IMG/VR virus record: IMGVR_UViG_3300045988_018548
Source: a virus
Lineage: Duplodnaviria; Heunggongvirae; Uroviricota; Caudoviricetes
Direction: 5' to 3' (one strand)
Length of the DNA stretch: 44,185 nt
Positions 2,711 through 44,185 of the stretch are shown here, piece after piece (position 1 is the stretch's first letter; the number at the start of each line of letters is the position of its first letter). The position numbers and the translations under genes were made by a program. Below the pieces are notes generated by a model. That model was not told the DNA's origin and searched no databases. It was given only the letters and a program-made list of their open reading frames with translations.

Positions 2711-2989
2711 TTATTCAACAGCGCCTGTTATTGCGATAAGCCCGGTGTTATCGCGGCGACGATACTTACGAATCACCGTTTTAAGTTCTCCATTGCTACT
2801 CTGATGCCCGAAAGTGACCGGCAACTCTTCTCCTCCTGACATCCCGAACTCAGTGTCCGTCGGTTTGTTCCTCCACCCCTGAATAAACCCATTATTATCG
2901 CGCGTTATGTACCGGTAGTTGTTAGGGAGGGGCAACTCCAGCCCCTCAAAATCAACGGTCACGGTGTAGCTGTTAAAATTCATAGTCAA
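2711..2989 (-). CDS. hypothetical protein
   Basis: 92-aa ORF in same-strand accessory cluster, start overlaps stop of upstream small ORF. Confidence 0.35.
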   Translation of the reverse strand: MTMNFNSYTVTVDFEGLELPLPNNYRYITRDNNGFIQGWRNKPTDTEFGMSGGEELPVTFGHQSSNGELKTVIRKYRRRDNTGLIAITGAVE

Positions 2990-3145
2990 TTACCCCAAAC
3001 TCATTAATGATTTGAGCCTTGTAGAAGTTGCCGTGTTTAGCCAGGTGGTACGCCTGCGCCATAGTCATCTCGCGGTAAGTTGCAGCGCTGTTTTCGAACT
3101 CCATAATCATCAAAGTAACCATATTCTGCCTCTCCTCTCGTTTGT

Positions 3146-3183
3146 GTAAATGAATGGTATCCTATTCTCCCCCAGTGTGCAAG
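3146..3183 (-). promoter_or_regulatory. class II conserved promoter motif (degenerate copy) for leftward small genes
   Basis: Minus-strand reading TTGCACACTGGGGGAGAATAGGATACCATTCATTTACA aligns with motifs at 4199..4232, 26307..26342, 35924..35957; followed by GAGGAGAGG and ATG at 3123. Confidence 0.4.
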
Positions 3184-3338
3184 TAAATTTTATTGGTGTT
3201 TGTATTGTTGCATCTCCTGCAATAGTCGCTTCGATTGTTGCGTTTGGTGAAATAGAACAAAAATGAGAAAAATGATACGCTGCTGTGTAGCAGCGTAAGT
3301 CACTCAGTAAAATCTCAAACTATTGTTACAATATAGCA

Positions 3339-3533
3339 TCACAATTCTGGCGGCTGCGGTAACGGCATCCAGTACACCACGTCGCAGCTACGAATATTTG
3401 AATTGTTCTCCGTGAAACTATCCCAGCAGTAATTTCCATCAAGCCATTTAACTTCTACATCCACGCCATCTGAAACCAGCACATCTTCAAAGTCATCAGG
3501 CATCCGCTCACTACACTTAATCCACTTACCCAT
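3339..3533 (-). CDS. DUF551-like protein
   Basis: 64 aa; C-terminal VVYWMPLPQPPEL matches the W-M-P-L-P-x-P-P hallmark of DUF551; RBS GAGGTGA. Confidence 0.5.
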   Translation of the reverse strand: MGKWIKCSERMPDDFEDVLVSDGVDVEVKWLDGNYCWDSFTENNSNIRSCDVVYWMPLPQPPEL

Positions 3534-3536
3534 ATC

Positions 3537-3704
3537 TCACCTCGGATTCGCAACAGACAACACAACAGACAACACAACAGACAACACACCAGCTTTCCAC
3601 GCCCGCCACGCGAGACGCGTCTTGACGTTCAGGTACTCTTTCTTCGAACCCTTGTTAACGGGCAGACCCTCGACAACGGCCCACCGTTCGAATGCTTCTT
3701 TCAT
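3537..3704 (-). CDS. small hypothetical protein with C-terminal (VLSV)x3 repeat
   Basis: 55-aa ORF not in track (below 60 aa); stop overlaps downstream start; contains the 12-bp tandem repeat. Confidence 0.3.
   Translation of the reverse strand: MKEAFERWAVVEGLPVNKGSKKEYLNVKTRLAWRAWKAGVLSVVLSVVLSVANPR
3552..3587. repeat. 12-bp tandem repeat x3 (aacagacaacac)
   Basis: Three perfect contiguous copies read directly from sequence. Confidence 0.9.
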
Positions 3705-3707
3705 AAC

Positions 3708-3908
3708 TTAGTCCTCCAGAACTTCGCATTCAGAATTTCGGACGAACAAATTCTCGCCGCGATGATTTACAACAAACCCATATTCGCAACTAATCCCTAC
3801 GTCGAACTCATCTCCAACAGAGACGCCAAAGTACGCAAGGCTAACGTCCTGGTATTCCTCAGGGCATGTTTGTTCAACATCAGTTATTCGAATCCTCATT
3901 AACGGCAA
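3708..3908 (-). CDS. hypothetical protein
   Basis: 66-aa ORF, tightly packed in leftward cluster. Confidence 0.35.
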   Translation of the reverse strand: MPLMRIRITDVEQTCPEEYQDVSLAYFGVSVGDEFDVGISCEYGFVVNHRGENLFVRNSECEVLED

Positions 3909-4168
3909 CCTCCCTCAGAGTCGTCGGCACGAGCATCATGATTCGATGCCGTTGTGAATGAGGCTTTCAGTCCGCCATCGAATACCCCTTTGAATTTAAA
4001 ATTGTTGCCAATTAATTCCAGATTATCGCGTAAGGCGAACCCGGGTTTCTTTCTTACCAGGCCCCATACGTCGACTATATTATCCTCGTCATACTCGTTC
4101 TCGTCCTGCAACACTATTACGTACTGCCCACCGCGTTTCGTTTTCACCAACTGACCCTTCTTAAACAT
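3899..4168 (-). CDS. hypothetical protein
   Basis: 89-aa ORF; GAGGAG RBS upstream of ATG 4168; first gene downstream of class II promoter at 4199..4232. Confidence 0.4.
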   Translation of the reverse strand: MFKKGQLVKTKRGGQYVIVLQDENEYDEDNIVDVWGLVRKKPGFALRDNLELIGNNFKFKGVFDGGLKASFTTASNHDARADDSEGGCR

Positions 4169-4198
4169 AACCCCAACTCCTCTGTCTCGTTCCGATAA

Positions 4199-4232
4199 GT
4201 GAATAGTGTCCTATTATATTGGGGTGTGCAAG
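4199..4232 (-). promoter_or_regulatory. class II conserved promoter motif (TTGCAC-N17-CACTAT on minus strand)
   Basis: Minus-strand reading TTGCACACCCCAATATAATAGGACACTATTCAC; near-identical to motifs at 26307 and 35924. Confidence 0.5.
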
Positions 4233-4396
4233 AGAATAGTTACGATGCCGTTGTGATTCTTTCGTTTCTTAAAAGAGTACGCAACGCAGTGGGTGGGCGT
4301 TAGCCCACCCCAGCGGAGTGAAGTACTCTCTACCTTGCTTACGGCAACTATAGAAACTTTTAATTATCAGTGGCTTGGGTATTTAGGCGGGATTAA

Positions 4397-4540
4397 CAAT
4401 AGACTTTGGCCCTTCCGAAAGCGCCAGCGGAACTACACTCAAGTGCCTAATGGCACGCGTTGCGTTCCCTGCCGCTCCGCGGTCGCTTGCGATATCTCAC
4501 AAGCTCAGTGAAGCTTAGCATATTTTTAAGTAAAAGTCAA
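4397..4540 (+). repeat. ~144-bp intergenic element, copy A (paralog of 35715..35857)
   Basis: About 75% identity to copy B by eye, same orientation, with hairpins at matching positions (gtgcc-taat-ggcac; aagct-cagtg-aagctt followed by T-run). Confidence 0.8.
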
Positions 4541-4586
4541 TACCAGTAGCATCTTTTGTATCTTAGTAACTTTGTGTTCGGTTTTG

Positions 4587-4615
4587 GTTGCTTTTACAAA
4601 GTTACCGCCTTATAC
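4587..4615 (+). promoter_or_regulatory. sigma70-like promoter TTGCTT-N17-TATACT for the rightward early operon
   Basis: Hexamers read from sequence with 17-bp spacing, about 30 bp upstream of RBS AGGAG and ATG 4647. Confidence 0.5.
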
Positions 4616-4646
4616 TTCGATACATGTTACACAGGAGAGCGTGAAA

Positions 4647-4816
4647 TGACTATCAATGAAGTTGCAGAATTAATCGGCGTCACCCGCCAGACAATTAATA
4701 ACTGGATTAAGAGTGGAAAGTTTCCTGATTGCAGCGTTAAAGTAATGGGTCGCAGAATGCCGGGTACATTTGACCGTAATAAAGTTGAATCGTGGGTTAA
4801 AGAGAACGTTAAATAA
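4647..4816 (+). CDS. AlpA/excisionase-family HTH DNA-binding protein
   Basis: 56 aa; MTINEVAELIGVTRQTINNWIKSGKFP matches the AlpA-type HTH pattern; RBS AGGAG. Confidence 0.6.
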
Positions 4817-4874: not shown

Positions 4875-7163
4875 ATGTCCGATGTAATTTTATCCTACTC
4901 GTGGTCTCGTCGCAACGCGCGTGCAGAGAAAAAGGATATAAACGTCAGAACCACCCACACGGCAACACTGGACGACCTGAAAGAGCTAATCAAGCCGCTT
5001 GATGCTGTTCGTGGCGGGATTAACCCGAAGACCGCACCTGGCTATATCACTGCCGCGTGCGACTCGGCACACAGCACCGTAAAAGACCCGGAAACCGGTG
5101 ACTTTAAGCAAGCGCGTAAAGGCTTCTTCTATCGCTGCGATGCGTCTGTAAGCAAATCGTCGCTGGCGTATCTGGACTTCGACAGTGCAACACCGGAAGA
5201 GTATCAGGAAGCGGTGCGCCTGGTTAAGCGCAGCCGCCTGGTTATGTGCCTTTACACCACGGCGTCACATACCGATGAGTCCCCACGCTTTCGGGTCGTC
5301 ATGCCGCTTGCCCGCCCGGTTGAAGGCGGTGACATCATCCGCGTTCGTCATGGATTGCTAGAGCACTTCTTCAAAGGCATGGGGGCGGACCGCAGCGGGT
5401 TTACTCTGTCCCAGCCGATGTACCTGCCACCAGTTGGCTCGCAGGTTATCTGGTCGCGCCGCAACGACCTGATTGACCCGGACGAATTACTGGAAGGCAT
5501 CCCCGCCGTTGACGTTAGCAGCGCATCGGATTACCAGATACCGGAAGAACTGCGCACCGCGTTTACAGATGCGTTTGAAGCACTGGCATTCGAGTACGGC
5601 GGCATCATGACGCCGCGGGGCCTGAAGATGCCCGCTACGCCGGAACACGCAGAAAACTACAGCGACCCGACGCCGCGCCCGGACGACTTCCTGCTGTGTT
5701 TCCCGCGTGAAGGGTACGAAGCGCCGAACGTAACCATGATTCATGACACTGACATCACGGCGACCGAGGGCATGTCACCGAAGGAGGTGTGGAAGTATGC
5801 GTGCGACGCTACCGGGCTGCCGTTCAGTGAAGTTGCAGAGGCTATCGGATGGGGCGCGCGGGAGTCCGTTTCATGCAGCCTCGACGACCTGGAAGATGAT
5901 GACGAGGACTCAGGGGAGGACGAGGACTCAGGGGAGGACGAGCTACCGGAACCGTTAAAGGCTGATTTCGTCGTTGAGGGGTACATGCCGTCTGATTGCA
6001 TATGGGATATCGTCGGGGAGTCCGGTACGTATAAATCCTTCTATACGCTGGGGATGATGTACCTCAGCGCCGCCGGATACCGGTTTGCGGGGGCGGACAC
6101 CCAGCGTTGCCACCATTTCTATATCGACGGGGAGGGTGGCGCGGCTACTCGCACCCGTATCGACGCGCTCGCGGCTAAGTATGGCGGGGAAGGTAAAGAT
6201 TATGTACATGTTATCGATATGGGCGAGGTCGGAAAACTGAAAAGCCTGATTAAGTTAATGCGTGAAACTGCTGGCGACGAGCCAATCGGCATGGTTGCGT
6301 TCGATACTCTCAACCAGACACTGGCTCTGACGATTGATAAGTTCGACGAGAACAGTTCATCGACGGCAATCGGTATGGGTAAGGTTATCGCCATCCTGAA
6401 AGAAGTACGTGACGCGACTAAAGCTGCGGTGGGCGTCGTCCACCATACACCGAAGGGCGGAAAGAAAGCCCGTGGCAGCGGGGCGCTGTATGCGGGTGTC
6501 GACGTGGAACTGACAATCGAACGTGCAACCGACCGCCAGATAAACGTATACCACTCTAAGTTTAAGCACGGCCCTCAACAGAAAACGGTTGGCATGGTAC
6601 TTGAGTCAGTACAGTTCCGTGAAGCACCGCCACCGAAAGAGTATCGCGCTGTCGAGTTCCTCGGCAGCACCGAGGGGTACGGCACAATCGTAAACCTCGA
6701 CCTGCCCGAGCCACACAAGGCGCTTGTATTGATGCCGTGGGGCTTCGAACCGTTCAAGACTGACGAGGAGAAAGAACGGGAAGAAGGGCTGCCGAAAGAA
6801 GGTAAAGAAAACGTACGTAAAACCGTAGAGAACGCTGTCAACAGCTCGGAGGCCACGATACTGGCAGCGTTTGAACTGGCGGAAGGAACCTACAACGGCA
6901 ACGAAGGCATCACAGTCGCAGCAGCTAATAAGCTCGCACAGTCAGACCCCAACGCAAAGGCGTTTAACTCCAAAGAAGCCATAGAACGCGGGAAGATTAA
7001 GAAAATGGTTGAGGCTGGGTATCTTGTTCCGGGGACTGACGAAAACAATCAGATAATCCCTGGCCGTTACAGGCTGAACACCCGGATAACTGATAACAAG
7101 ATTCCGAAGACAATATACGAACCGAATGAGATGCTGATAGTGACAGAGGAGGATTTGGAATGA
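4875..7163 (+). CDS. bifunctional primase-helicase (AEP-type primase N-terminus, RecA-like P-loop helicase C-terminus)
   Basis: 762 aa; N-terminal LDFD and TTASH motifs; Walker A GESGTYKS; Walker B-like MVAFDTL; acidic linker between domains. Confidence 0.8.
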   Translation: MSDVILSYSWSRRNARAEKKDINVRTTHTATLDDLKELIKPLDAVRGGINPKTAPGYITAACDSAHSTVKDPETGDFKQARKGFFYRCDASVSKSSLAYLDFDSATPEEYQEAVRLVKRSRLVMCLYTTASHTDESPRFRVVMPLARPVEGGDIIRVRHGLLEHFFKGMGADRSGFTLSQPMYLPPVGSQVIWSRRNDLIDPDELLEGIPAVDVSSASDYQIPEELRTAFTDAFEALAFEYGGIMTPRGLKMPATPEHAENYSDPTPRPDDFLLCFPREGYEAPNVTMIHDTDITATEGMSPKEVWKYACDATGLPFSEVAEAIGWGARESVSCSLDDLEDDDEDSGEDEDSGEDELPEPLKADFVVEGYMPSDCIWDIVGESGTYKSFYTLGMMYLSAAGYRFAGADTQRCHHFYIDGEGGAATRTRIDALAAKYGGEGKDYVHVIDMGEVGKLKSLIKLMRETAGDEPIGMVAFDTLNQTLALTIDKFDENSSSTAIGMGKVIAILKEVRDATKAAVGVVHHTPKGGKKARGSGALYAGVDVELTIERATDRQINVYHSKFKHGPQQKTVGMVLESVQFREAPPPKEYRAVEFLGSTEGYGTIVNLDLPEPHKALVLMPWGFEPFKTDEEKEREEGLPKEGKENVRKTVENAVNSSEATILAAFELAEGTYNGNEGITVAAANKLAQSDPNAKAFNSKEAIERGKIKKMVEAGYLVPGTDENNQIIPGRYRLNTRITDNKIPKTIYEPNEMLIVTEEDLE
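5901..5942. repeat. 18-bp tandem duplication (gacgaggactcaggggag x2.3) in primase-helicase acidic linker
   Basis: Perfect contiguous copies encoding DEDSGE DEDSGE. Confidence 0.85.
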
Positions 7164-32271: not shown

Positions 32272-32511
32272 TTATTCCTCTGACTTACGGCGACGACGCT
32301 TAGTACCACCGCCGTTGTTGTGCGCTTCTTCGTTGTCCGGTTGAGTCGCAACCAGTTCATCCGCTTCTACCACACCGCGAACAGGCATCACCTGACCATC
32401 AACACCGCGAACAGGCATCACCTGACCATCAACACCGCGAACAGGCATCACCTGACCATCAACAACGTCAACGTGGGTGTATTTTTCGCGGATTACATAA
32501 TTATCTACCAT
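32272..32511 (-). CDS. small protein with three DGQVMPVRGV repeats
   Basis: 79 aa; contains the perfect 30-bp tandem triplication; basic C-terminus. Confidence 0.4.
   Translation of the reverse strand: MVDNYVIREKYTHVDVVDGQVMPVRGVDGQVMPVRGVDGQVMPVRGVVEADELVATQPDNEEAHNNGGGTKRRRRKSEE
32371..32460. repeat. 30-bp tandem repeat x3 (aacaccgcgaacaggcatcacctgaccatc)
   Basis: Copies 2 and 3 identical, copy 1 differs at one base; in-frame. Confidence 0.9.
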
Positions 32512-43945: not shown

Positions 43946-44091
43946 TTCTCATCTCCTGCATAAGCTGCTTTCAGTGTCTGCATCGCGGCGAACCAGAACG
44001 CGTCCGCCGGAATGCTGTTGCTCAGGTTACCAACGGCGATGCGTGCCATCAGTTGTGCGTCTTTGAATGCTTCGATATCTGTGATTTTCAT
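43942..44091 (-). CDS. small hypothetical early protein, first gene of leftward early operon
   Basis: 49-aa ORF with RBS GGAG; start codon lies inside the 119-bp terminal repeat. Confidence 0.3.
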   Translation of the reverse strand: MKITDIEAFKDAQLMARIAVGNLSNSIPADAFWFAAMQTLKAAYAGDEK

Positions 44092-44185
44092 TTCTCTCTA
44101 CTCCGTTCTCGTTGTCGATGGAGTAAATATAATAGGGTCGAGGGTAATAGTCAACTAGTCATTGCAGAAAATAGATAAAAAAAAT
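44067..44185. repeat. terminal direct repeat, exact copy of 1..119
   Basis: 119/119 nt identity to window start. Confidence 0.9.
44126..44154 (-). promoter_or_regulatory. minus-strand promoter TTGACT-N17-TATATT for the leftward early operon
   Basis: Hexamers at 17-bp spacing; lies within the terminal repeat, so also present at 60..88. Confidence 0.5.

Follow-up and report, generated by a model that had tools for sequence, protein, structure and literature searches.

The window (the whole stretch of DNA analysed, 44,185 nt) carries a leftward operon of small early genes in which, on the minus strand, a phrog_12538 gene (3899..4168) and a gene for a 66-aa phrog_10916 protein (3708..3908) are followed by a small gene for a 55-aa protein (3537..3704), a DUF551 gene encoding 64 aa (3339..3533) and the intrinsic terminator of the operon (3276..3297, TACGCTGCTACACAGCAGCGTA and then a T-run). 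A 12-bp tandem array lies in the small gene. The DUF551 gene is a variable cassette 3′ of the small gene that is missing in some relatives, where the terminator comes directly after the small gene. Matches to phages of the genus Kagunavirus (Guernseyvirinae; K1G-like siphophages infecting E. coli and Salmonella) were obtained for the repeat region and for the first 12 kb, with about 90% identity over 70–80% coverage in the best GenBank records, and they identify the window as a Kagunavirus genome. Its two ends share an exact 117-bp direct repeat (2–118 = 44068–44184), most easily explained by overlapping ends in a circular or terminally redundant assembly, and the window looks whole. Megablast of positions 3300–3950 against complete E. 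coli genomes gave no match, so the repeat region is not prophage-borne.

The small gene has a Shine-Dalgarno sequence, GGAGGA (3712..3717, minus strand), 7 nt before its ATG and identical in the twin contig (L007, described below); the stop codon TAA of the upstream gene (3708–3710) lies between this Shine-Dalgarno sequence and the ATG. Its product, MKEAFERWAVVEGLPVNKGSKKEYLNVKTRLAWRAWKAGVLSVVLSVVLSVANPR, is a predicted helix-loop-helix protein that matches phrog_15836 over residues 1–44 (E = 7.2e-33). Assignment to Pfam PF26207 (Phage_phiTE_015) comes via homologues, as precomputed hits to this family are present on all close homologues of the protein; the local Pfam copy, in which the PF26207 model is absent, returned only a sub-threshold match to DUF2839. 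By tblastn the ORF was found in 143 phage records, with residues 1–39 at ~97% identity, and no INPHARED record aligned to it beyond 153 nt. Codons 1–40 (M...WKAGV, 3585..3704) form a conserved core, and family-wide homology stops at its 3′ edge. Across the 38 distinct DNA haplotypes of this core, 8, 7 and 28 sites vary at codon positions 1, 2 and 3, respectively, so that third positions account for 28 of 43 variable sites, and pooled pN/pS is 0.07 in the ORF frame vs. 3.6 and 2.5 in the other two frames. The core thus bears the signature of a translated gene under purifying selection, which identifies the small ORF as a real gene. An AlphaFold model built with 25 homologues (mean pLDDT 74) shows a helix at residues 2–12, a loop and a second helix at residues 27–52, and predicts with moderate confidence that the tail encoded by the repeat continues helix 2. 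No functional lead came from NCBIfam, PADLOC or PDB sequences, and a profile search of all ORFs in the window revealed no paralogue.

The plus-strand unit of the array, AACAGACAACAC, occurs in three exact copies starting at 3552, 3564 and 3576 (3552..3587). Read on the minus strand the unit is GTGTTGTCTGTT, with the codons GTG TTG TCT GTT, and the three units specify residues 40–51 of the protein as VLSV VLSV VLSV. Tandem Repeats Finder reported an array at 3551–3592 with period 12, 3.5 copies, 96% matches and a score of 77; its extension to 3592 takes in a partial, imperfect fourth unit (3588..3592, minus strand), in which ACCAG(C) differs by one base from AACAG and whose coding strand is part of a CTGGTG located 12 bp upstream of CTGTTG. 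Given the composition of the window, a perfect 36-bp array of period 12 is expected by chance ~1.6e-10 times per 44 kb, and the array is therefore real and far beyond chance. The preliminary description had reported three perfect copies at 3552–3587, inside a 55-aa minus-strand ORF with a (VLSV)x3 tail that lies just upstream of a DUF551 gene. Unit, copy number and coordinates agree with ours, the ORF at 3537..3704 has the translation given above, and the next ORF, 3339..3533 on the minus strand, matches Pfam DUF551 (E = 4.2e-13).

Downstream of the array, the minus strand reads GCG AAT CCG AGG TGA (3537..3551), i.e. ANPR and the stop codon. The GAGGTGA at the end of the small gene also serves the DUF551 gene as its Shine-Dalgarno sequence; the DUF551 ATG comes 3 nt past the stop, and this arrangement, with the next ATG at +3, is kept in most relatives. 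The array is located upstream of this Shine-Dalgarno sequence, and the distance from the latter to the DUF551 ATG is independent of copy number. An RNA element was considered at this site and rejected, no Rfam family being found at E ≤ 1 in 2900–4700; RNA of the repeat folds less stably than shuffled controls (z = +1.94).

A search of the genome for the array 12-mer with up to two mismatches found no other occurrence except near-matches inside an unrelated 30-bp repeat. This second repeat (32372–32464, perfect, 3.1 copies) lies in a 79-aa ORF (32272..32511, minus strand) among structural genes and encodes (DGQVMPVRGV)x3. Nine E. coli phage rows among the 12 listed of 128 GenBank relatives give alignments of 177 nt (59 aa), indicative of a single copy, and among the matches listed the 30-bp triplication therefore appears private to the lineage of the window, the twin contig also having three copies. 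A perfect 18-bp repeat of 2.3 copies (GACGAGGACTCAGGGGAG, encoding DEDSGE) is present at 5901–5942, inside a 762-aa helicase-primase ORF (4875..7163), and has the same copy number in that contig.

Far from being invariant, a possibility that the preliminary description had allowed for, the 12-bp array is present in relatives in 1, 2 or 3 copies. Its other reservation, an untranslated ORF, is at odds with the selection seen on the core. One copy (GCTGGTGTGTTGTCTGTTGCGAATCCGAGGTGA) is found in phages fFiEco03 and LF7074P1 and in IMG/VR contigs L012 and L013, and is the commonest state: the exact 47-aa protein (P0066) is encoded on 153 contigs, and near-identical variants on many more. These single-copy alleles carry GCTGGTGTGTTGTCTGTTGCG, that is, a 1.5-copy seed. 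Two perfect copies occur in phages Ivi (Greece) and SHAK7693 (Australia), in L007 and in ten Logan/ENA contigs from different samples (L054–L063); the exact 51-aa proteins of this type are encoded on 55 contigs (P0051) and 2 contigs (P0052), giving at least 57 public contigs in all. Three copies were found in this window only, and the exact 55-aa protein is absent from ~15 billion proteins, INPHARED and IMG/VR. Neither exact form of a 4-copy protein, starting with MK or MR, occurs among the ~15 billion proteins, and IMG/VR and JGI metagenome contigs (searched in JGI with a gene-anchored pattern) yielded no further array of two or more copies in the small gene. The flanks, GCTGGT...GCGAATCCGAGGTGA, are identical across the 1-, 2- and 3-copy alleles, and the units are perfectly identical. 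One 51-aa relative has VLSCVVSA at this position, which looks like an older, diverged duplication.

Two observations concern the collections themselves. The 90%-identity cluster of 51-aa alleles in the protein collection (P0053, P0055, P0056 and P0059) includes 66–67-aa DUF551-like proteins, also as its representative, and this looks like a clustering artefact. IMG sample 3300045988 (loci L011–L048), a metagenome or virome, holds ~30 distinct near-complete Kagunavirus contigs with many alleles of the locus, several of which end near it, in keeping with assembly-graph breaks at a hypervariable mosaic region.

The near-identical twin of the window, contig IMGVR_UViG_3300045988_011391 (L007), comes from that sample and is 44,173 bp long vs. 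44,185, i.e. shorter by exactly 12 bp, with the same contig end point. Over 23.2 kb compared (11.4 kb + 11.9 kb), the two differ by 9 SNPs, two 1-bp indels and one 12-bp unit, with 2 copies in the twin contig vs. 3 in the window, the genome's two other perfect tandem repeats being the same in both. So close a pair points to a recent last change in copy number. A 1-copy contig (L012/L009) shares its 120-nt core haplotype with five 2-copy genomes, and it is 96–98% identical to several 2-copy genomes over 1.6–2.7 kb spanning the gene. At least four core haplotypes carry the 2-copy allele, although recombination could mimic such recurrence. These patterns would arise from repeated gain and loss of units, or from recombination moving the array between backgrounds, and both probably occur. 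The mutation rate is not extreme, given a 2-copy allele that is widely distributed and stable in many different samples.

Conservation among homologues ends after ...WKAGV (residue 40), where the array starts. Relatives with a DUF551 gene have a 7-residue variable tail up to the ribosome-binding site (e.g. LSVANPR, LFIANQR, QAVMNKG and QTVMNTR), and QSLIERGVRYG is a frame-variant tail. In relatives that lack DUF551 the tail is QYRAGVTGGVTGQ, running straight into the terminator, and some alleles of the small gene are fused to 84-aa tails. Tail variants follow whatever sequence lies downstream, and their chemistry differs by allele, being hydrophobic, polar or Gly-rich. As judged by these alignments, the tail of the small protein is not conserved. 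The claim in the preliminary description that a slippage-prone repeat could vary the length of a hydrophobic C-terminus thus holds as regards length, which differs by whole units, whereas the hydrophobic tail itself is not conserved in the family.

The gene end is also a mosaic junction. Homology to the DUF551-less phages Schulenburg, Snoke, Shashou and Sciku (96% identity) sets in at ~3585, where the array has its inner edge. In phages Ivi and SHAK7693 the repeat allele is of the same type as in the window, but the genes upstream are unrelated and the DUF551 variant is only 65% identical. Such comparisons indicate that the genes upstream and downstream have been exchanged independently. Past the DUF551 stop codon, at 3300–3345, the window retains a degenerate remnant, TGTAACAATAG, of a GGTGTAACAGGTCAATAG unit (by comparison with L040 and L052), so that short homologies of the GGTGT type flank the DUF551 cassette at either end.

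A second, unrelated 12-bp array, (GGTGTAACAGGT)n, read (GVTG)n, is found at the same gene end in DUF551-less relatives, just upstream of the operon terminator. It has 1 copy in L040, 2 in L039, L046 and Schulenburg, and at least 7 in IMGVR_UViG_3300045988_013393 (L047/L053/L050), both ends of that contig lying inside the array. Six copies are present in contig 3300010278_000001 (L052:3668–3739), where the array is non-coding, because it comes after the DUF551 stop codon and contains an in-frame TAA in every unit; a further site is L001:1459–1500. L040 has GCAGGAGTG at the codons occupied by the 12-bp array of the window, and homologues P0029 and P0033 show tandem duplications in the same stretch, namely AWRAWRAWK (9 bp) and WKAGVQYKS twice, WKAGVQYKSWKAGVQYKS (27 bp). 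That one junction carries two different 12-bp arrays may hint at a local cause for which the slippage explanation has no name. The 12-mers of both arrays are also seen as perfect tandem arrays in giant-virus MAGs (L006:1986–2045 and L051:9118–9189) and in an 87-kb viral contig (L008:7789–7812); as their flanks are unrelated, these are coincidental low-complexity linker repeats.

We consider it probable that the array is an in-frame 12-bp variable-number tandem repeat (VNTR) generated by replication slippage in a tolerant tail, and that its variation is ordinary and near-neutral. Its units lie head to tail beyond chance, and alleles differ by whole units between conserved flanks. The array would mark the site at which a conserved core (codons 1–40) meets a variable cassette made up of the tail codons, the ribosome-binding site and the DUF551 gene. 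The ancestral single-copy sequence may already have held ~1.5 copies, with CTGGTG and CTGTTG 12 bp apart, and this is the likely substrate of the first slippage. Strand slippage in replication, or unequal exchange between concatemers or co-infecting genomes, would then add or remove whole 12-bp units, each change only adding or dropping one VLSV in the predicted C-terminal helix. With a unit length divisible by 3 and a tail in which almost any sequence is tolerated, such changes spare the reading frame, the stop codon and the ribosome-binding site of the next gene, and the variants would persist. Since the chemistry of the tail is not conserved and a parallel array occurs in non-coding DNA, the variation looks mutational and tolerated, not tuned. 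Slippage as the molecular event and near-neutrality (no phenotype) are both what we infer, neutrality being an assumption.

An adaptive role is unlikely, though marginally less so than the other alternatives. Copy number would here be selected through the length and hydrophobicity of the C-terminal helix, e.g. for membrane association or binding of a host target, as at a contingency locus. With 1, 2 and 3 copies, the apolar run comprises 7, 11 and 15 residues, and the maximum Kyte–Doolittle hydropathy over 19 residues (KD19) rises from 0.28 to 1.04 to 1.63, the last value reaching the classical transmembrane threshold; WRAWK precedes the run, and in the structure model the tail extends helix 2. 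Furthermore, the locus belongs to an early region with small accessory genes, a setting in which genes for host interaction are frequent, the units remain perfectly identical, and the second VNTR lengthens the tail in other alleles. However, both sequence and chemistry of the tail vary among alleles, hydrophobicity being particular to VLSV alleles, in which it rises only through expansion, and the commonest allele, with its single copy, lacks a membrane-like segment. A membrane span would normally be longer than even 15 apolar residues, no allele with four or more copies was found, the (GGTGTAACAGGT)n array expands equally in non-coding DNA, and searches of Padloc, NCBIfam and the PDB gave no functional handle. 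A tail-anchored or single-pass membrane protein was rejected on hydropathy, the longest apolar run being 15 residues vs. the ~18–20 or more expected, and on the non-conserved tail.

It is improbable that the repeat acts at the level of DNA, its coding effect being incidental, with the array or its edge motif GCTGGTGT serving as a recombination hotspot or protein-binding array that drives cassette exchange. The array does start exactly where homology to the DUF551-less relatives stops (~3585), both flanks are heavily mosaic, GGTGT is common to both cassette boundaries, and two unrelated 12-bp arrays as well as the 9-bp and 27-bp duplications cluster at the junction; yet survivorship at a tolerant gene end explains this clustering equally well. 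Most relatives are single-copy, so the array is not required, and L040 has a different sequence (GCAGGAGTG) at the same codons. The rest of the genome shows no enrichment of the 12-mer, dyad symmetry is absent, and no candidate binding protein was identified. The edge motif matches 7 of the 8 bases of Chi (GCTGGTGG), but it occurs only twice, no more than by chance. A Chi-like hotspot was rejected, as true Chi, with 4 occurrences in the genome vs. 1.1 expected, is nowhere near the locus and GCTGGTGT is as frequent as chance predicts.

Very unlikely, in our view, is a broader proposal in which the 3′ junction of the PF26207 gene in kagunaviruses is a dedicated diversification hotspot with a local cis cause, its tail variants being selected in an arms race with the host. 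Behind it stand (GTGTTGTCTGTT) in 1–3 copies, (GGTGTAACAGGT) in 1 to at least 7 copies and the 9-bp and 27-bp duplications, all beside the GCTGGTGT/GGTGT motif, and a replication pause or a Chi-like recombination signal might promote such duplications. With equally little probability, the third unit is an artefact of assembly or sequencing, and the genome itself has only two, as in the twin contig: the 3-copy allele is unique to the window, and the twin has the same break point and is exactly 12 bp shorter, so that the two may derive from related assemblies, but a perfect array of 36–42 bp is spanned by single short reads and normally assembled correctly, the 9 SNPs and two 1-bp indels imply distinct genomes or consensus sequences instead of one mis-assembled sequence, and cultured isolates provide independent evidence of variation from 1 to 2 copies.

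Slippage in a tolerant tail agrees with several known systems to different degrees. In-frame VNTRs (micro- and minisatellites) in bacterial and phage coding genes arise by slipped-strand mispairing. Like these, the Kagunavirus array has perfect head-to-tail units whose length is a multiple of 3, whole-unit differences between close relatives, a position in a tolerant, low-complexity part of the protein, and a partial-copy seed in the unexpanded allele. Unlike typical examples, it has a small range (1–3 copies) and a short unit, and is located at a mosaic junction of a 47-aa phage protein whose end overlaps the next ribosome-binding site. Phase-variable contingency loci consist of homopolymers or 4–7-nt repeats that shift the reading frame. 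The array resembles them in being a site of repeat-mediated and probably recurrent, reversible mutation; a frameshifting phase-variation locus was nevertheless rejected, given a 12-nt unit and an ORF that stays open with 1, 2 or 3 copies. Because 12 nt is a multiple of 3, no on/off switching results.

The best-known functional repeat expansion in a phage is that of the pseudo-ToxI locus of Pectobacterium phage phiTE. At this locus, ~1.5 copies expand by whole units, which the authors credit to strand slippage (Blower et al. 2012, PMC3475682). The Kagunavirus array likewise starts from ~1.5 copies, but its unit is 12 nt and coding, and its RNA is unstructured and has no Rfam match. A ToxI-like type III antitoxin RNA repeat, with non-coding pseudoknot units of ~36 nt, was rejected on the length and coding nature of the unit and the lack of an Rfam hit at E ≤ 1. 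PF26207 (Phage_phiTE_015) is named after another phiTE gene, so the overlap in name is a coincidence and does not denote the same locus.

Module boundaries in mosaic tailed-phage genomes arise by illegitimate or short-homology recombination at gene ends. At the Kagunavirus locus, too, homology breaks within a few bases of the array and flanking genes are exchanged independently; unlike the usual boundary, this one lies inside the 3′ coding end of a gene and bears tandem arrays. Since the boundary lies inside the 3′ end of the small gene, the tail of the protein is supplied by the incoming cassette. A literature search on Kagunavirus tandem repeats and phage VNTRs returned nothing specific, and no paper describing this array in kagunaviruses was found.

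The array is an ordinary slipped-strand polymorphism of a well-known kind, and its use is minor. If copy number changed membrane association or host interaction, the array would represent compact, repeat-driven tuning in a virulent phage, which no result here requires. Kagunaviruses are under study for therapy against uropathogenic and K1 E. coli. For this genus, the array provides a fast-changing marker that separates near-identical genomes and flags the precise edge of a mosaic cassette, and the supply of the protein tail by that cassette bears on the annotation of PF26207 proteins and on later studies of their function.
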